DNA of 32,000 nucleotides. Source: Candidatus Peribacter riflensis (lineage in GTDB: Bacteria > Patescibacteriota > Gracilibacteria > Peribacterales > Peribacteraceae). The notes below the pieces were generated by a model. The model saw nothing but the letters and a program-made list of their open reading frames with translations. It had not been told where the DNA came from and ran no database searches. This document shows, in pieces, positions 5,154-28,787 of this stretch. The DNA is taken from positions 1,020,001 to 1,052,000 of the forward strand of contig CP013062.1 of NCBI GenBank assembly GCA_001430755.1, written 5' to 3'. A program made the position numbers and the translations under genes. Within the stretch, counting starts at the first letter, position 1. Each line of letters opens with the position of its first letter.

Positions 5154-5552
5154 ATGCATCGCACGTACTCCCGCGCGCCGCGGGAACAGCAGCTCCTGCT
5201 CTTCCCTGTGAAGCGGCACACGCCGTACACATGGGCAGTGGAACGGCTGATCGAAAAAATGCGCAAGGGATTTCTGGAGCTGCCCGATTTGGAAAAACGC
5301 CTGGTGGAACTGGGCATCTTCGAGGAGGCGGAGGAGATCGACCTCGCGTGGGCGCACACGATGTATGCCCATCACCAGCCGATGCCGGATCGTGACAAAT
5401 TTCTTGGTACGCTCTGGCATCCGATTCTCGGCGCACTTGAAACGCTCAATGAGCAGGGCTTGCGCGCACTGCCGCAGGTGCGCAAAAACCTCATACAAGT
5501 TCTGAAAGAGAGGCGTGGGAACAGTGGCGATCGGATGACTACGACTCCGTGA
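5154..5552 (+). CDS. Hypothetical protein (132 aa), second gene of the cassette
   Basis: ATG 2 nt after the stop of 4825..5151. Amphipathic, protein-like sequence with no recognisable domain. Confidence 0.45.
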   Translation: MHRTYSRAPREQQLLLFPVKRHTPYTWAVERLIEKMRKGFLELPDLEKRLVELGIFEEAEEIDLAWAHTMYAHHQPMPDRDKFLGTLWHPILGALETLNEQGLRALPQVRKNLIQVLKERRGNSGDRMTTTP

Positions 5553-10013: not shown

Positions 10014-11252
10014 ATGCAACTCCGCGATACCGTCACCATCGCGCTCAAGGCAGTGAGGGGCAATAGAGCCCGCTCGCTCCTCACGATGCTCGGCATCATC
10101 ATTGGGGTAGGGGCAGTCGTGCTCATGACGAGCGTGGGCGAGAGCATGCAGAGCGTCATCCTGGGCCAGATCAGCGCTCTCGGCCCCAAAACCGTTGCCC
10201 TCTGGCCGGGAAAGAACGGACCGGAGGAAGGGGGCTCTTTTCTCAACCCTGATTTTGACAGCATTACCATCAGCGACATTGACGCGCTCCGCCGTCTCAA
10301 CACGATTGCGCATGTCACCCCCATCATCTTCATGGAGGGAAAAGTATCGTACGGCACTGAGGAATCTGATGCGGCAGTGAGCGGGATGACGCCCGATTCC
10401 TACATCAACCAGCCGGTAGTCGCGACCGAGGGGCGGCTGCACGATGAGCAGGATGAGCTCGATGGACGCCAGGTGGCCGTGCTCGGACCGGACACCGCGC
10501 GCGACCTGTTCGGTAACGCGAGCCCCATCGGCAAACGCATCGACATCGGGAACCAGAAGTACACGGTCATCGGCGTATTGGAAGCGAAGGGCTCGCAGTT
10601 CTTCCAGAATATGGATGAACGCATCATCGTCCCCTTCGAAACGGCACGAGTCACGACACGGCAATCCTACGTGGATATGGCAACCACCACGGCAACAGGG
10701 GATCCGGCGGATGCCATGAATGACATCCGGTTCCTGCTGCGGCGGCGCCACAGCATCGTGCCTCCCGCCACCGGCATCGAGACGGATAACGATGACTTTC
10801 TGGTCCGCAGTTCCGAACAGGCGCAAGAAATCCTCGGCACAGTCTCTTTCAGCCTGACGGCGTTCATTACGATGATCGCGACGATCTCGCTAGTGGTCGG
10901 CGGCATCGGCATCATGAACATCATGCTGGTTGCCGTCACGGAGCGGACGCGTGAAATCGGCCTCAGAAAGGCGCTTGGCGCGCGGCGCAATGACATCCTG
11001 ATGCAATTCCTCATCGAGGCCGTTGTCCTGACCATTATCGGCGGCATCATCGGTCTTCTCCTGGGCTTGGGTCTGAATGCCATGATTGTCGGCATTGCCC
11101 GAAAGTTTCTGGAACGCTACATCTTTGCCGTCAATATCACCGCGATGATCGCCGCTCTACTCATGGCAGCAGGCACAGGACTCATCTTCGGCATTTACCC
11201 GGCCCGCAAGGCCGCGGAACTCAGCCCCATGGAAGCCCTTCGCTACGAATAA
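10014..11252 (+). CDS. ABC transporter permease, FtsX/MacB-type (paralog 1)
   Basis: N-terminal TM, large extracytoplasmic domain, and a C-terminal FtsX-like 3-TM bundle ([28 protein letters not shown]...[22 protein letters not shown]). Confidence 0.9.
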
Positions 11253-11285: not shown

Positions 11286-12503
11286 ATGCGCACCCAAGAC
11301 ACCCTACGCTCGGCCACCGAAGGACTCACCCGCAACATCTCGCGGTCACTCTTAACGACGCTCGGCGTCATCATCGGCGTGGGATCAGTGGTGCTGATGG
11401 TATCAGTCGGCACGACATTCGAACGATACATCCTGGATCAGGTGAGTTCTTTCAGTGGCAACACATTTGAAATACAACCAAAAGGCATGGAGCAAATCGG
11501 CAAGAACATGAATACGCTTACCGAAGCGGATGCCGAAGCCCTCGACAAGCTCTCCACGGTTCAGAACGTCACGAAGGCAATATTCATTGCACAGAAAGTG
11601 AAATACGGATCAGAGGAGGAAACTCCCATGGTGCTCGGGACATCCAAGGAAATTTTCACGAACTGGTCGCTGAAGATCCAGGAGGGGCGATTGCTGACGG
11701 ATGGCGACCTGAAAGGGGGACAGAATGTGGCGGTCATCGGTCCGCAAATAGCCGAGAATCTGTTTGGCAATGCCGACCCCCTGGGCAAGCGCATCAGTGT
11801 GGGAGAGCAAAAATTCACCGTCGTCGGCGTTCTCAAGGGACTCGGGGGCATGATGGGCACGCAAATGGATAGAATGATTTACGTTCCGTATACCGTGGCG
11901 AAGACGATGACGAGCAAAGGACAGTACGTGGATTACATTTCTGTGCAGGCAGTAGGAAGCGTTGAGCTGGCAGAAGAAGATATCAAATCTCTGCTCCGTC
12001 AGCGCCATGATCTTGATAATCCCGAGAATGATCCCGACAAAGATGATTTCATCGCACGCTCCTTTGAACAGGCGATGGATATCGTCGGCACGGTGACTCT
12101 CTCCATCACGATCTTCCTCGGCCTCATCGCCGGCATATCACTCGTCGTGGGCGGCATCGGCATCATGAACATCATGCTGGTGTCTGTCTCAGAGCGCACC
12201 AAGGAAATCGGTCTGCGCAAGGCAGTGGGGGCGCGACGGAAGGATATTCTGCTGCAATTCCTCATCGAAGCTGTGGCTCTCACGCTGCTCGGAGGCATCA
12301 TCGGCATCGTAGGCGGCGGTTTCTTCGGATTCCTGATCACGCGCCTTGCGGAGAAGTTTCTGGGGAGCCTCTCTTTCGCCCTCACCATTGGCTCAGTGGC
12401 ACTCGCACTCGGCATGGCCGTGGGGACGGGCCTCATCTTCGGGCTCTATCCCGCGCTGCGCGCGGCTAAACTGAGTCCCATTGAAGCGATGCGCTTTGAG
12501 TAG
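11286..12503 (+). CDS. ABC transporter permease, FtsX/MacB-type (paralog 2)
   Basis: Same architecture and motifs as the upstream paralog ([28 protein letters not shown]...LYPALRAAKLSPIEAMRFE). Confidence 0.9.
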   Translation: MRTQDTLRSATEGLTRNISRSLLTTLGVIIGVGSVVLMVSVGTTFERYILDQVSSFSGNTFEIQPKGMEQIGKNMNTLTEADAEALDKLSTVQNVTKAIFIAQKVKYGSEEETPMVLGTSKEIFTNWSLKIQEGRLLTDGDLKGGQNVAVIGPQIAENLFGNADPLGKRISVGEQKFTVVGVLKGLGGMMGTQMDRMIYVPYTVAKTMTSKGQYVDYISVQAVGSVELAEEDIKSLLRQRHDLDNPENDPDKDDFIARSFEQAMDIVGTVTLSITIFLGLIAGISLVVGGIGIMNIMLVSVSERTKEIGLRKAVGARRKDILLQFLIEAVALTLLGGIIGIVGGGFFGFLITRLAEKFLGSLSFALTIGSVALALGMAVGTGLIFGLYPALRAAKLSPIEAMRFE

Positions 12504-20206: not shown

Positions 20207-20854
20207 CTACCACCCTCTGCCATACCACGGCTCAAGAAGTTCCGGTGCAAAGGTCTGCCGGGCAAGGAACTCCGGAAGCACATCGTCGAGAGACCGGAGG
20301 GACGCAGGAGTGGTCCTGTCTTTGAACAGGGCTTCGTGTTCGGGGATCAGTTCTCCCACAAAAAAGAGCTCATTCCTCATCCCCCCTCCCTCTGGGAGAG
20401 GGAAGGGTGAGGGGGGAAGCTTTGCTATAAAATCATCAACGGTTAAGTGAACCGCCTCTGGCCAGAGAGATGTATAGGACCCGAATCCCCGCGCGAAGAG
20501 CTCATGCCTCTTCGTGGAGTGAAGCCAGAGAAAATCGACGGCATCCTGTACTCTCGCCGCAGTGAGATCGCTCAAATGGATTCCCGCCCCCGGAATATGC
20601 AGTTGATGGATGAGAGTATTGGCGAATGCCACCGCCACCCTGAGGCTCATGAATCCTCCGGGACCGATGGCGCAGGCAACATGGGTGAGATCTCCGCTTT
20701 TCCATCCGGCCGCATCGAGCGTCTTTTCGAAGAGCAGAATCAGCTCATGATCGCCGATCCGATGATCGACCGGTTCGGAGGCCTTGATCGCCCGATCCTC
20801 GGCACAGGCGAGGAGGCCGGAATGGCTGGCCAGATCAAGAAAGAGACAGCGCAC
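20207..20854 (-). CDS. tsaB: tRNA threonylcarbamoyladenosine biosynthesis protein TsaB (YeaZ); GTG start
   Basis: YeaZ-type N-terminal pattern (LFLDLASHSGLLA...HVACAIGPGGFMSLRVAVAFANTL). Contains an in-frame REP-like insert (see repeat 20381-20417). Confidence 0.75.
   Translation of the reverse strand: MRCLFLDLASHSGLLACAEDRAIKASEPVDHRIGDHELILLFEKTLDAAGWKSGDLTHVACAIGPGGFMSLRVAVAFANTLIHQLHIPGAGIHLSDLTAARVQDAVDFLWLHSTKRHELFARGFGSYTSLWPEAVHLTVDDFIAKLPPSPFPLPEGGGMRNELFFVGELIPEHEALFKDRTTPASLRSLDDVLPEFLARQTFAPELLEPWYGRGW
20381..20417 (+). repeat. GC-rich REP-like hairpin element, family copy 2, inside the tsaB coding sequence
   Basis: CCCCCCTCCCTCTGGGAGAGGGAAGGGTGAGGGGGG. Read on the minus strand it encodes PPSPFPLPEGGG within TsaB. 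Confidence 0.6.
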
Positions 20855-21881: not shown

Positions 21882-21929
21882 ATCAGAGATGAGTGATCAG
21901 CCACAAGCTTCATACATCTTCATGAGAGT

Positions 21930-22066
21930 GGGGGTGGCGCGCCACGGGGGGTGAAGGGGAAGGCCCTGACACGCGCAGCGGGGAAAGCCGACGAGTCAGC
22001 TCCGAAGCCTTGGAGGAGATGACGAGGAGGCACAGGGCCGGGCGGAGTGGGGATTGGCGCGCCGGC
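21930..22066 (+). ncRNA. Copy A of an unclassified ~135-nt GC-rich structured repeat (candidate ncRNA / MITE-like element)
   Basis: Aligns with 26881-27019. Bracketing helix GGCGCGCC 21936-21943 / GGCGCGCC 22056-22063. Inner helix GGCCCTG 21962-21968 / CAGGGCC 22033-22039. Strand is assigned only because both flanking genes are on +. Confidence 0.5.
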
Positions 22067-22142
22067 GTTTGGGCGGAAGCCTTTTCGCCGGAAAAGGGTG
22101 GAAAGAGTAATGGTGATCATCCCATGCTATGCTTTCGACCTC

Positions 22143-24455: not shown

Positions 24456-25124
24456 ATGAAAAGGTACTACGTCTTCCTCATTCCGCTTTTTGCGCTTGCA
24501 CTCTTGGTTGGGTGCGGCCAGCAAAGCGAACCGGCGCCCGAGGCCCCTCCTCCTGCCGCCGAAGCAACTCCGCCAGAGGAAGAGGCTCCTCCCCCTGAAG
24601 AGATGGAACCCCCCGCCCCTGCCGGCTTTGACGGAACACTGCTGACCGGAAAGCAAACTGTCATCCTCCACACGAGCATGGGAGATGTCACCCTGGAGCT
24701 GGATGCCGACAGCGCCCCGCAGACGGTGACGAACTTTGTCATTCTCGGTCGCACTGGCTTCTACAACGGCCTCACCTTCCACCGCGTCATTAAAGATTTT
24801 ATGATCCAGGGCGGCGACCCGAACGGCGATGGCACGGGAGGCGAGAGTATTTATGGCCCCACATTCGAAGATGAGTTGGAGGGCAACCCCCTCCCGCTGG
24901 TGCGCGGCGTGATCGCCATGGCCAATCGCGGACCGAACACGAACGGCAGCCAGTTCTTCATCATCACCCGCGCCGACGGCACTCCCTGGCTCGTCGGCAA
25001 ACACACGCCATTCGGACGCGTAGTGGAAGGGATGGAAGTGATAGATGCCATCAGCGAGGTCATCGTCGGGGAACTCGAAAGGCCGCTGGATCCGGTGACG
25101 TTTACGGTAGAGGTAGTCAATTAA
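24456..25124 (+). CDS. Cyclophilin-type peptidyl-prolyl cis-trans isomerase, lipoprotein
   Basis: Trimmed to [22 protein letters not shown] (lipobox LVGC), then a Pro/Glu/Ala linker and cyclophilin motifs [15 protein letters not shown] and NTNGSQFFI. Confidence 0.9.
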
Positions 25125-25167
25125 GAAAATACAGACCATCCATGGTGTCTTCGGGTATCCTGTTTCC

Positions 25168-25359
25168 ATGCGCACCCGTTTCGCGCCATCGCCGACAGGT
25201 TTCCTGCATGAAGGCGTGAGAGACAAACCTACGGTTTTTCTCTCACGAACTCTCTTTTCCTTTAGTGGAGTCGCTCCAGCGCGGGAACCCGCGAGACCCG
25301 CGCTTCGCGACAATTTTTTGAAATTCAACCTAACCCACTCCATTATCCATACCTCATGA
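25168..25359 (+). pseudogene. 5' remnant of gltX forming a 63-codon upstream ORF that ends in ATGA on the functional gltX start
   Basis: Its first 14 codons (MRTRFAPSPTGFLH) match the real gltX start (MRTRFAPSPTGFIH). Homology then decays (EGVRD vs VGNLRT) and is lost. The stop TGA (25357-25359) overlaps ATG 25356. Confidence 0.6.
25318..25346 (+). promoter_or_regulatory. Candidate gltX promoter TTGAAA-N17-CATTAT, 9 nt upstream of the ATG
   Basis: -35 at 25318-25323 and -10 at 25341-25346, ATG at 25356. Lies inside the segment separating the remnant from the functional gene. Confidence 0.45.
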
Positions 25360-26828
25360 GAACCCGATTTGCTCCATCTCCTACTGGCTTTATCCATGTT
25401 GGGAACCTGAGAACGGCACTCTTTGCCTGGCTCATCGCGAAACAGACGAACGGAAAATTCCTCCTGAGAGTCGAGGACACGGACCAAGCGCGATCCGTCC
25501 CGGGAACCATCGAGAGTGTCCTCAAAACCCTTCATTGGGCCGGCCTCGATCCGGATGAGGGCGTGATGCTGCGCAAAGGAGTGGTGGCACAGGAAGGCAC
25601 GCACGGCCCATACATCCAGTCCGAACGTCTGGAGCTCTACCGCACATCCGCCGGAGAGCTCCTGAAAGCAGGGCACGCCTACCCCTGCTTCTGCACGCCA
25701 GAGCGGCTCACGAAGATGCGCGAGGAACAGATGGCACGGAAACAGGCACCCATGTATGACCGGCTCTGTACACGCCTGCCGAAGAAGGAGATCGAGCAGC
25801 GTCTGGAGCGCGGTGATCCCCATGTGCTCCGGCTTCTCGTTCCGCACGAACGGACATTTACCTACACCGATGAAGTCCGCGGAGAGGTCTCGTTCCAGGG
25901 TCACACGGTGGATGATCAGGTTCTTCTCAAGAGCGACGGTTTCCCCACGTACCACCTCGCCCACGTGGTGGATGATCACCTGATGGAGATCGATCTCGTG
26001 ATCCGCGGGGAAGAATGGCTCAGCTCCACTCCCAAGCACCTGCTGCTGTTCGAGCGTCTGGGCTGGCAGCCTCCGAAGTACGCGCACGTACCACTCCTCC
26101 TGAATAAAGACCGTACGAAATTGAGTAAGCGTCAGCAGGACGTGGCGGCCGAGGAGTACATCGCAAAGGGATATTTACCCGAAGCACTCATCAATTTTCT
26201 CGCGCTCCTCGGCTGGAACCCGGGATCGGAGCAGGAGCTTTTCTCGCTCGAGGAATTGACCGAGGCCTTCTCGCTGGAACGCGTGCAGAAAGCCGGGGCG
26301 ATCTTTGACTTAACCAAATTGGACTGGCTGCAAGGCCAGTGGATCCGCAGGCTCCCGCTTGCGGAGTTTGCCGACCGGCTGCAGATGCTCACTGTGGAGC
26401 GCTTTCCGGAGGCCAAGCACGACGCGCACTTCAAAGAGAAGGCTGCACTCGTCCATGAGCGCGTAACCTTCCTGAAAGAGGGGCCCGACATGCTCGCCTT
26501 CTTCTATGTGGATCCGAAAGTTGATTTGGACCTCCTCGCCAATGAAAAACAGAAGATCACGAAGGAGCTCCTGCCCAAGGTCCTCAAGGTGCTGGTGGAA
26601 ACCATGGAGAAAATTTCTGAGGATGAATGGACAATCGACTCGCTCAAAGAAAAACTGCTCGCCCGCGCCAAGGCCGAAGATCTGACGCAGGGGCAACTGC
26701 TCTGGCCACTCCGTGCCGCTCTCACGGGTCTGCCCTATAGCCCGGGTGCCTTCGAGGTGGCTGTGGCGCTGGGCAAAGAGACCACCCTCCTGCGACTGGA
26801 AGTAGCCCGGGCAGGCCTCCAAAAATAA
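25356..26828 (+). CDS. gltX: Glutamyl-tRNA synthetase
   Basis: Class I motifs: HIGH variant PTGFIHVGNLRTALF and KMSKS variant KLSKRQ. Full-length GluRS-like sequence of 490 aa. Confidence 0.95.
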   Translation: MRTRFAPSPTGFIHVGNLRTALFAWLIAKQTNGKFLLRVEDTDQARSVPGTIESVLKTLHWAGLDPDEGVMLRKGVVAQEGTHGPYIQSERLELYRTSAGELLKAGHAYPCFCTPERLTKMREEQMARKQAPMYDRLCTRLPKKEIEQRLERGDPHVLRLLVPHERTFTYTDEVRGEVSFQGHTVDDQVLLKSDGFPTYHLAHVVDDHLMEIDLVIRGEEWLSSTPKHLLLFERLGWQPPKYAHVPLLLNKDRTKLSKRQQDVAAEEYIAKGYLPEALINFLALLGWNPGSEQELFSLEELTEAFSLERVQKAGAIFDLTKLDWLQGQWIRRLPLAEFADRLQMLTVERFPEAKHDAHFKEKAALVHERVTFLKEGPDMLAFFYVDPKVDLDLLANEKQKITKELLPKVLKVLVETMEKISEDEWTIDSLKEKLLARAKAEDLTQGQLLWPLRAALTGLPYSPGAFEVAVALGKETTLLRLEVARAGLQK

Positions 26829-26880
26829 CGTAAAGACACACCGCCGGTGCATCTCAACAAAACAACGCACAGCAACCGTT

Positions 26881-27019
26881 GGGGGTCCGCCGCCACGGGG
26901 GGTGAAGGGGAAGGCCCTGCACTGCCGCAAGAGCAGTGCGCGCCGACGAGACGAGCCGAAGCCTTGGAGGCGAGGCGAGGAGGCACAGGGCCGAGCGGAG
27001 TTGGGATTGGCGGCGGTGC
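26881..27019 (+). ncRNA. Copy B of the unclassified ~135-nt GC-rich structured repeat
   Basis: Bracketing helix CCGCCGCC 26887-26894 / GGCGGCGG 27009-27016. Inner helix 26913-26919 / 26986-26992. Variable hairpin GCACTGC/GCAGTGC 26919-26939. Confidence 0.5.
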
Positions 27020-27030
27020 GCTTCTCTTTG

Positions 27031-27618: not shown

Positions 27619-27660
27619 CCTCCTTCCCTCTCCCCAGGGGAGAGGGCTAGGGTGAGGGGG
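27619..27660 (+). repeat. GC-rich REP-like hairpin element, family copy 3, abutting the murB start codon
   Basis: CCTCCTTCCCTCTCCCCAGGGGAGAGGGCTAGGGTGAGGGGG. Contains the perfect 10-bp palindrome CCCTCTCCCC-A-GGGGAGAGGG. Ends 1 nt before ATG 27662. Confidence 0.65.
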
Positions 27661-28528: not shown

Positions 28529-28547
28529 ACCGGCACTATCAATCTCT

Positions 28548-28575
28548 TTGTTTATGGTGCAAAAAGCGGTATAGA
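28548..28575 (+). promoter_or_regulatory. Candidate promoter TTGTTT-N16-TATAGA, 7 nt upstream of ATG 28583 (predicted leaderless)
   Basis: -35 at 28548-28553 and -10 at 28570-28575, in an AT-rich patch between convergent murB and ssb. Confidence 0.45.
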
Positions 28576-28582
28576 TTCTTCG

Positions 28583-28771
28583 ATGCACTGCTACATGCAT
28601 TCAGAATTGCACACCCGCCTTCATCCGCCTGCACCGGATGCACGTAGACCCGAAGAATACGCATTAACCCAGCAATTGAGAGATGCCGTGGATCACCGCC
28701 GTGCGTTGAGCCACCAACAGATGGCACTGTGCGTCCCGTTCGCACAGAGAAATTTTGATCCGCCGAAATGA
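28583..28771 (+). CDS. Small hypothetical protein (62 aa, His-rich N-terminus)
   Basis: The ORF starts 7 nt after a -10-like box, the same geometry seen at other genes here. No recognisable domain. Confidence 0.4.
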   Translation: MHCYMHSELHTRLHPPAPDARRPEEYALTQQLRDAVDHRRALSHQQMALCVPFAQRNFDPPK

Positions 28772-28787
28772 GAACACCAACACCCCT

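Follow-up and report, generated by a model that had tools for sequence, protein, structure and literature searches.

A structured repeat element between a duplicated gene start and gltX in Candidatus Peribacter riflensis

The 32,000-nt stretch analysed here (Candidatus Peribacter riflensis contig CP013062.1, positions 1,020,001 to 1,052,000; referred to as the window, whose own numbering is used below) contains gltX, the gene for glutamate--tRNA ligase, whose first 14 codons are present twice, on either side of a copy of a conserved structured repeat of ~105 nt. The first of the two copies opens an upstream open reading frame (uORF) that crosses the repeat and stops at a TGA overlapping the ATG of the complete gene. 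The same succession of gene-start remnant, element and gene recurs in other genomes in front of unrelated genes. As judged from the compared sequences, the arrangement is probably the outcome of an intragenic insertion of the element in gltX, tolerated by means of the duplicated start and of termination-reinitiation at the overlapping stop and start codons.

The duplicated start of gltX and the inserted element

All features of the locus described here are on the plus strand. The gltX gene (25356..26828) encodes a protein of 490 aa with the domains PF00749 and PF19269. Its codons 1-14 (T_R, 25356..25397, MRTRFAPSPTGFIH) are a recoded, AT-shifted duplicate of the gene start, and the 14 codons of the upstream copy (T_L, 25168..25209, MRTRFAPSPTGFLH) represent a remnant of the original one. 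The two are identical in 30 of 42 nt. A first-pass annotation, made from the sequence alone, had described 4 codons as identical, 9 as differing only synonymously and 1 as a conservative L/I change, and this comparison was reproduced exactly. Similarity stops after codon 14-16, not at the ~19 codons proposed there, and the segment that separates T_L and T_R measures 146 nt (25210-25355) instead of 130. The residues FLH of T_L are found in at least 30 relatives, while the functional copy T_R reads FIHVGN. The uORF, 63 codons long (25168..25359), leads from the remnant through the element to the TGA overlapping the gltX ATG at 25356, as had been noted.

The surroundings of the remnant are those of a native gltX gene. 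The native upstream region (25125..25167) aligns, together with the remnant, to the native gltX start region of the related locus L003; in a BLAST comparison, the remnant and the 23 nt 5' of it were 83% identical to that region over 70 nt. Further upstream lies a gene for peptidyl-prolyl isomerase (PPIase; 24456..25124 in the list of open reading frames), the conserved neighbour of gltX. Pro_isomerase was called at the matching position in L057, and the order PPIase-gltX is kept in relatives. The closest gltX loci in the species-level genome set belong to metagenome-assembled genomes of Peribacteraceae, with 81-87% protein identity.

Direct reading of the sequence places five junction nucleotides, GAAGG (25210..25214), at the boundary between remnant and element; in other element copies the junction comprises 1-8 variable nt, often containing a stop triplet. 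The insert itself (25215-25319) is one copy of the ~105-nt structured element. The first-pass annotation had treated it as a private, promoter-bearing spacer, which does not hold: it is a member of a widespread repeat family, and the two hairpins that had been noted are real but correspond to its two conserved, covarying stem-loops. Hairpin 1 (25215..25247), reported as a stem of 8 bp, has 15 bp with one C-T mismatch and the loop TAC (25215-25229 pairs with 25233-25247). It is followed by the linker AACTCTCTTTTCCTTTAGTGGA (25248..25269), a conserved pyrimidine-rich block in the alignment of copies. Stem-loop 2 (25270..25311) is composed of an outer stem GTCGC/GCGAC, an internal loop TCCA/TTC, an inner stem GCGCGGG/CCCGCGC and an 11-nt loop; the segments GCGCGGG / CCCGCG / CCCGCGC noted earlier were located at 25279-25303. 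A 34-nt core inside stem-loop 2 (25274-25307) is identical in 52 metagenome contigs. The T-rich tail AATTTTTT (25312..25319), present in nearly all copies, closes the element and includes the T6 run noted before (25314-25319).

The predicted motif TTGAAA-17-CATTAT could also be located (25318..25346), 9 nt 5' of the gltX ATG; one such site was found against 0.2 expected by shuffling. It is promoter-like as a consensus match only, and it is not conserved in other loci.

A covarying repeat family and the recurrence of its layout

The architecture shared by the copies comprises hairpin 1 (14-15 bp), the pyrimidine-rich linker, an outer stem of 4-6 bp, the internal loop (5' side TCCA, 3' side TTC), an inner GC stem capped by a loop of 11 nt, and the T-rich tail. 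Base pairs were counted in 44 distinct aligned copies, against shuffled and slid controls. Standard pairs fill 93.8% of cells, compared with 84.1% in shuffled alignments and 38-55% in slid registers. Changes on both sides of a pair, i.e. compensatory, were detected in 10 of 15 pairs of hairpin 1 and in 4 of 5 outer-stem pairs, 14 pairs in total, and the observed values of pairing and covariation were reached by none of 500 shuffles. The inner stem is invariant in this set by construction. Among copies recovered with a covariance model (R1), the inner stem covaries in L113, L091, L114, L065, L006 and L018, the compensatory variants being GCGATGGG/CCCATCGC, CGTTGGGT/ACCCAACG, ACAGGC/GCCTGT and TCGGGC/GCCCGA; copies with these variants retain CTCCAG...CTTCG. 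When the linker was tried as an alternative partner for the hairpin 1 5' arm, 73-87% of cells were paired, but slid registers score equally high.

With regard to transcription, a terminator-like match was obtained at 25290-25309 with the tail ACAATTTTTT, and the full stem, 12 bp with interruption (25270-25311), continues directly into T6. By sequence, a GC-rich stem-loop placed immediately before a T run, the element looks like an intrinsic (Rho-independent) terminator.

The family was disclosed by a BLAST search of the gltX intergenic region against related loci, which gave a 36/36 match in L011, a locus whose GltX is 65% identical to that of the window, and collinear matches just 3' of the ssb gene in L006 and L011. 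A pattern scan of JGI metagenome contigs found the exact 34-nt core on 52 contigs of Peribacteria, and further copies with variant cores were recovered by model R1. According to the covariance model, the copy at gltX is the only one in the window, and up to three copies occur within a ~14-kb stretch of one contig (e.g. L065, L091). Many copies are located at gene ends. In approximately 21 of 46, the end of a co-oriented upstream ORF falls between -9 and +15 nt from where hairpin 1 starts, in most cases 0-9 nt ahead of that point, and in L077 and L108 the element begins 5-6 nt past the 3' end of a tRNA. In three diverged lineages a copy on the minus strand stands directly after the stop codon of ssb (L006 6076-6190, L011 6017-6127, L018 6348-6458); the region downstream of ssb in the window (28540-28787) is without one. 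As a further variation, L077 carries two copies inverted tail to tail between two tRNA genes (2135-2363), one with a long core and the other with a short inner hairpin.

Rfam at the gathering threshold recognized only 16S rRNA in the whole window, with no T-box, riboswitch or known small RNA (sRNA), and a relaxed search of 24900-25600 (E up to 10) added a single chance-level sRNA match on the opposite strand. There are no tRNA genes in the window. A phage origin was rejected, the core pattern being absent from viral contigs. When ORFs around the 52 copies were clustered, no protein family recurred within 3 kb on either side beyond orthologous loci. The RAYT (IS200/IS605-like) gene, or other recurrent neighbouring enzyme, that a REP/REPIN type of system would have was thus not seen in these flanking stretches, which were searched in place of whole genomes. 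Like a MITE (miniature inverted-repeat transposable element), the element exists in many dispersed non-coding copies. Terminal inverted repeats were not found: in the 44-copy alignment the 5' end, CGTGAGAGACAAACC, has no inverted similarity to the 3' end, GCGACAATTTTTT. Nor is there a short target-site duplication of fixed length, since ~44 of 52 copies have no flank repeat and in the others it is variable, 22-62 nt or more. The element is not mentioned in the genome paper of Ca. Peribacter riflensis (PMC4736985), and full-text literature searches found no description of the remnant-element-gene layout. At the level of sequence comparison, it is shown to be an undescribed structured repeat family of Peribacteria, with a covarying fold.

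In about 8 of the 52 copies, the flanks duplicate a gene end that directly abuts the element. Protein-coding 5' cases are gltX in the window, a GT4 glycosyltransferase gene in three genomes (L099, L110, L113), and a GHMP-kinase-like (mevalonate-kinase-like) gene beside mevalonate-pathway genes in two (L062, L102). Two cases concern tRNA genes (L064, L095), in the order 5' fragment, element, intact tRNA, and in L063 the 3' end of a minus-strand gene is duplicated around the element (53 nt, 89% identity). The tRNA 5' remnants of L064 (~5180-5280) and L095 each hold a further nested insertion of a GC-rich palindrome, 35-41 nt long, and the L095 element is itself interrupted by ~80 nt.

In all six protein-coding loci, the ORF started in the remnant crosses the element, and its TGA stop overlaps the ATG of the gene, the configuration characteristic of termination-reinitiation coupling. 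The overlap was computed directly for the window, L110, L099, L062 and L102; for L113 it was taken from the coordinates of called genes (236-466 and 463-1371, a 4-nt overlap) and from the sequence, which reads ATGA, and there it is kept despite a diverged core. Distances between old and new ATG in the five computed loci are 188, 179, 179, 167 and 149 nt, all equal to 2 mod 3. In L062 and L102 the element is read in different frames and both ORFs still end at ATGA, as a 17-nt upstream and a 1-nt downstream difference in length add up to 18. In loci other than gltX, the element is separated from the ATG by only 5-12 nt, and the promoter-like motif is not a feature of the family. The chance of the overlap can be put, as a rough estimate, at ~0.04 per locus (phase 1/3, open frame ~0.4-0.6, A at +4 ~0.2), and at ~1e-4 for three independent gene contexts; the latter is likewise a rough figure and not a computed statistic.

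Duplicated segments differ in apparent age. Those of L110 look young, with 89% identity over 62 nt and an identical run of 31 nt. Nevertheless, the GT4 remnants of L110 and L113 share the codon series ATT CTC CTC ATC and the restart copies share another, ATC CTT CTK, so the duplication predates the split of these two genomes. Within each genome the two GT4 copies agree fully in their 3' parts, down to the lineage-specific EE versus ED, which indicates gene conversion. Because the duplication is old and its 3' parts are converted, remnants do not behave as freely decaying pseudogene fragments. A survey of such uORFs in protein databases was unproductive because gene callers rarely call them: a profile search gave 3 matches, and a HMMER scan of 1.84 billion representatives one relevant match. 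It yielded L113 and P0243, a valyl-tRNA synthetase (ValRS)-like N-terminus fused to an element-encoded peptide; the contig of P0243 is not on record.

Recoding of the restart copy and the divergent 5' patch

At every locus AT content is higher in the downstream copy than in the remnant, with 41 GC-to-AT and 12 AT-to-GC differences over the six loci. In the window, T_R has a GC content of 0.45 and T_L of 0.62, and 8 differences are GC-to-AT against 1 AT-to-GC. The GC content at third codon positions (GC3) of T_L is 0.62, typical for the clade. For codons 2-14 of gltX, GC3 drops to 0.23, compared with 0.46-0.92 in 12 other lineages, and it is normal from codon 15 onward (0.67-0.73); the AT shift is confined to codons 2-14. 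Differences between the window copies are synonymous except for the one conservative L/I, and L110 and L113 each have one non-synonymous codon. The near-saturated synonymous change pointed out in the first-pass annotation is thus present, but it is strongly directional and coincides exactly with codons 2-14 of the restart copy. This shift explains it without selection on the remnant peptide: T_R, constrained at the protein level, was pushed silently to A/T, and T_L stayed near the native state. Codon 2 is CGN in the seven closest aligned relatives and AGA in the window, and it is this change that produces the ATGA overlap there.

Genes of the window are nearly devoid of Shine-Dalgarno (SD)-like motifs, and their upstream regions are pyrimidine-rich. 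The 3' tail of 16S rRNA (window ~1385-1402) reads ...GGATGGAACACTTCCTTA, with the anti-SD CTTCC and not CCTCC. Because of these two features, accessibility of the start site probably matters for initiation and may be decisive.

A second anomaly extends beyond the duplicated codons. Within codons 1 to ~100 of gltX, nucleotide identity is 60-73% between the window and close relatives and 78-89% among the relatives themselves. Beyond codon ~105 the window is no farther from them than they are from each other. Non-synonymous divergence (dN) in codons 2-100 amounts to 0.19 for the window compared with 0.03-0.07, and to 0.07-0.10 for all pairs in codons 105-489; synonymous divergence (dS) is likewise higher for the window in codons 2-100. 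Residues absent from all ten close relatives number 14 in the first 100 positions and 6 in the 386 downstream, and the last of the 5' sites is residue 98. The C-terminal 150 aa of PPIase are 83-86% identical to those of close relatives, the same as relatives inter se. Because divergence and private residues stop at codon ~98-105, and PPIase and the rest of gltX are clade-typical, the patch of about codons 1-98 (25356..25650) looks imported from a diverged, unsampled lineage of Peribacteraceae. Replacement of the 5' end by a diverged allele, one of three options offered in the first-pass annotation, gains partial credit from this discrete patch between clade-typical sequences.

Searches for the donor gave a maximum of 72% nucleotide identity per segment among 41 gltX genes, only fragments of up to 76% in a protein search with the first 113 residues, and a maximum of 83% identity over the first 100 residues among 119 full-length homologues. 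One protein, P0002, is a mosaic in its own right, natural or formed as an assembly chimera. It is 89% identical to the GltX of the window; in the N-terminal half it agrees with P0020, scattered substitutions aside, and in the C-terminal half it is the same as the protein of the window.

Proposed mechanism, alternatives and related systems

The arrangement suggests the following course of events. Transcription would start at the native promoter 5' of 25168, and ribosomes would load at the old ATG in T_L and translate the uORF straight through the element. Their passage would melt both hairpins and oppose termination at stem-loop 2 and its U-tract. After stopping at the UGA of AUGA, ribosomes would reinitiate on the complete downstream gltX. 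The A/T-ending codons of T_R would suit a start that has to function right after a GC-rich folded element, in a host whose genes lack SD motifs. In the window alone, the promoter-like motif could add to this route or replace it. As for its history, the element-bearing allele probably gained its recoded start elsewhere; the element, the spacer and about codons 1-98 may then have entered by recombination. The right-hand crossover would lie near codon 100, and the left junction would be either homologous, within the remnant, or illegitimate. The duplication itself could have arisen as a long target duplication on insertion or by one-sided homologous import. The former is favoured by the duplicates found around tRNA genes and the 3' end of one gene, and disfavoured by the lack of duplicates at most copies and by a foreign patch that exceeds the duplicated segment.

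Several observations weigh against the proposed tolerance of an insertion through reinitiation. The layout at gltX was seen in one lineage only. The comparison with related gltX loci suggested in the first-pass annotation was negative on both counts. A regular-expression scan of 45 loci of Peribacteria and other bacteria revealed a second start motif within 600 nt upstream in none of them, a result of little weight for the 10 loci whose true start likewise escaped the motif. With the covariance model, applied to the window plus 48 relative loci, the element was detected upstream of gltX in no relative. The promoter-like motif between element and gltX could yield a near-leaderless transcript, in which case the uORF would be irrelevant. 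Further, L099, L110 and L113 are mutual orthologues and so are L062 and L102, which leaves only three independent gene contexts, and an open uORF is by itself not improbable, given that the three frames of the element are open in 31, 22 and 33 of 52 copies. The proposal does not account for how the gene start was first duplicated, a flank duplication of any kind was observed in only ~8 of 52 copies, and the donor searches turned up no lineage above 83% identity over the N-terminal 100 residues.

Among the options of the first-pass annotation, a uORF acting by termination-reinitiation is nevertheless the best supported, in view of the ATGA overlap in 6/6 protein-coding loci of three unrelated genes. 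An old duplication with a constrained remnant holds true for the glycosyltransferase locus, where the layout predates the split of two genomes. A neutral recombination scar, in which a foreign fragment complete with upstream region took the place of the gltX 5' end, left 14 native codons and supplied the internal promoter from which gltX is transcribed, would deprive the uORF and ATGA of any role. We consider this unlikely. The promoter-like site 9 nt 5' of the ATG, the terminator-like stem and T-run just upstream of it, the existence of a mosaic 5' patch, and frames often open by composition alone are all expected from such a scar. It does not predict the overlap in all six loci, five of which leave no room for a promoter (5-12 nt), the compensating indels that preserve frame in L062/L102, or the persistence of the layout across diverged genomes, three for GT4 and two for the kinase. 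The AGA at codon 2, which makes the overlap and is seen in the window alone, and the restriction of AT recoding to the duplicated codons are equally difficult to reconcile with it.

Transposition in place, with a target duplication of ~45-90 nt followed by AT recoding and faster evolution of the N-terminal 100 residues, would dispense with foreign DNA. It addresses origin only, is compatible with the uORF mechanism, and appears to us possible if rather doubtful. It accords with duplication of whatever gene type and orientation is hit (tRNA genes in L064 and L095, a minus-strand 3' end in L063), with the young-looking duplicates of L110 (89% over 62 nt), with an AT shift that stops exactly at the end of the duplicated segment, and with the failure to find a donor. 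Against it stand dN and dS raised up to codon ~98, far past the 14 duplicated codons, with a sharp boundary and normal GC3, and ~44 of 52 copies without flank duplication. The lack of terminal inverted repeats, and of a transposase or other enzyme recurring within 3 kb of the element, also argues against it, as do copy differences that are nearly all synonymous, whereas drift would be expected at every codon position of a free remnant. A gltX-specific attenuator, whose uORF would sense charged tRNA-Glu or translation capacity through its Glu codons and tune read-through, is very unlikely. The uORF does cross a terminator-like stem-loop with a U-tract, has GAA at codons 15 and 40, the latter within the element core, and has a linker that may pair with the hairpin 1 5' arm, though slid controls score equally high. 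However, only 2 of its 63 codons are for Glu, far from the codon usage of a leader-peptide attenuator, and no T-box or other Rfam leader was found. Glycosyltransferase and kinase genes are preceded by the same element and encoded peptide, and the element also comes after stop codons and tRNAs. As part of the invariant core, the Glu codon is common to every copy read in that frame regardless of the downstream gene, so it is not an adaptation of gltX. Finally, a metagenome assembly chimera of the gltX loci of two strains deserves next to no credence, even if, as P0002 shows, databases do contain chimeric or mosaic GltX sequences. We rejected such an artefact on the grounds that L057, an independent 174-kb Rifle (ANAN16) scaffold, differs from the window in none of the 4,473 bases compared, and that the exact GltX protein is encoded on 24 or more contigs from 45 blocks of the assembly collection, in part longer than 1 Mb. 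Five curated complete genomes of Ca. Peribacter riflensis agree with this (PMC4736985), and the same layout appears in unrelated genes from other studies.

If insertion with a restarted gene is the correct interpretation, a bacterium with a minimal genome tolerates a folded, terminator-like repeat in the coding start of an essential aminoacyl-tRNA synthetase gene, by a route outside textbooks that combines a duplicated gene start with a stop/start overlap. The need to restart translation would then reshape codon choice near the start. In broader and more tentative terms, the element might be a mobile, non-autonomous module that settles in essential genes, tied to start duplication, with ribosomes neutralizing its terminator and handed on to the gene at AUGA. 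Such a module would provide both a splicing-like bypass and a portable, translation-coupled control of read-through. The covarying fold and the invariant internal loop make the element a candidate protein-binding or recombination site, and the mosaic 5' patch suggests that elements move between lineages together with adjoining gene segments. Gene-start remnants upstream of genes would be a recognizable signature, currently ignored by annotators.

The organization resembles several known systems in part. Integration of e14 or phage 21 in E. coli icd, and elements integrating in tRNA genes, leave an insert flanked by a gene-end duplicate with mainly synonymous differences. As at gltX, one intact gene copy persists next to a short remnant. 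Those inserts are of kilobase scale, depend on an integrase and fixed attachment (att) sites, and duplicate 3' ends with no translational restart; the present insert of ~105 nt is without an enzyme, occurs at 5' ends of several genes, and expression apparently depends on the uORF. The 146-nt insert also lacks an ORF of its own, and each kind of locus has a different duplicated segment (gltX, GT4, kinase, tRNAs). Small structured repeats of bacteria include REP/BIME/REPIN, ERIC, Correia/NEMIS and Rickettsia palindromic elements. They are similar in size (~100 nt), non-coding character, dispersion, conserved stem-loops and location mostly by gene ends, sometimes being terminator-like or inside ORFs. 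The Peribacteria element differs in that no terminal inverted repeats or linked transposase were found, and its invariant feature is the internal loop CUCCAG...CUUCG between two covarying helices. While Rickettsia palindromic elements are read in frame within the protein, here the gene restarts after the element.

Leader-peptide attenuators such as trp, his and pheST place a short ORF across a terminator-like hairpin before the regulated gene. A uORF over such a hairpin in front of an aminoacyl-tRNA synthetase gene conforms to this scheme, except that the gltX uORF is not enriched in cognate codons and its module is shared with unrelated genes and non-coding contexts. Homology-facilitated illegitimate recombination during natural transformation and the long variable target duplications of the IS1634 type are known routes, either of which could produce a foreign segment tethered by homology at one end, or surround an insert with a long direct duplication, tens of bases in length. 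Neither of them predicts the conserved frame relation, AT recoding or a constant element at the junction. Translational coupling of adjacent cistrons by an overlapping stop and start (AUGA) is described for IS91 orf121-tnpA (PMC13181058). In both situations the upstream stop overlaps the downstream start and permits termination-reinitiation, but the upstream ORF considered here is not a gene; as a chimera it joins the duplicated start of the downstream gene to a translated repeat.

Other small repeats and scars

In L001 (2756-2885), and likewise in L002 and L007, the PPIase gene upstream of gltX has its terminal 27-30 nt, stop codon included, duplicated around an insert of ~70 nt. The insert contains a palindrome, GTCACCCTGAGC...GAAGGGTGAC, and the same palindrome family is present in the flanks of L076 and L102. 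Coding differences between the L007 copies are synonymous. The scar is a mirror image of the one at gltX, in the same intergenic region. Because it holds a different palindromic insert, duplication of gene ends around small inserts seems to be a more general tendency of these genomes.

A second, G-rich repeat family of ~143 nt is represented in the window at 21928-22070 and 26879-27023 (~85% identity) and is not in Rfam. The latter copy lies directly 3' of the gltX stop codon, and the family adjoins the hairpin element in L084, L106, L065 and L090. A 269-nt direct repeat at 10785-11053 and 12036-12304 (70% identity, 1,251 nt apart) is probably paralogous coding sequence. The short inverted pair CCCCCTCCCTCTGGGAGAGGGAAGG / CCTTCCCTCTCCCCAGGGGAGAGGG (20382-20406 / 27622-27646) looks like another small palindromic intergenic repeat, and palindromes similar to it, GGGGAGGGG, flank the element in L068 and L086.

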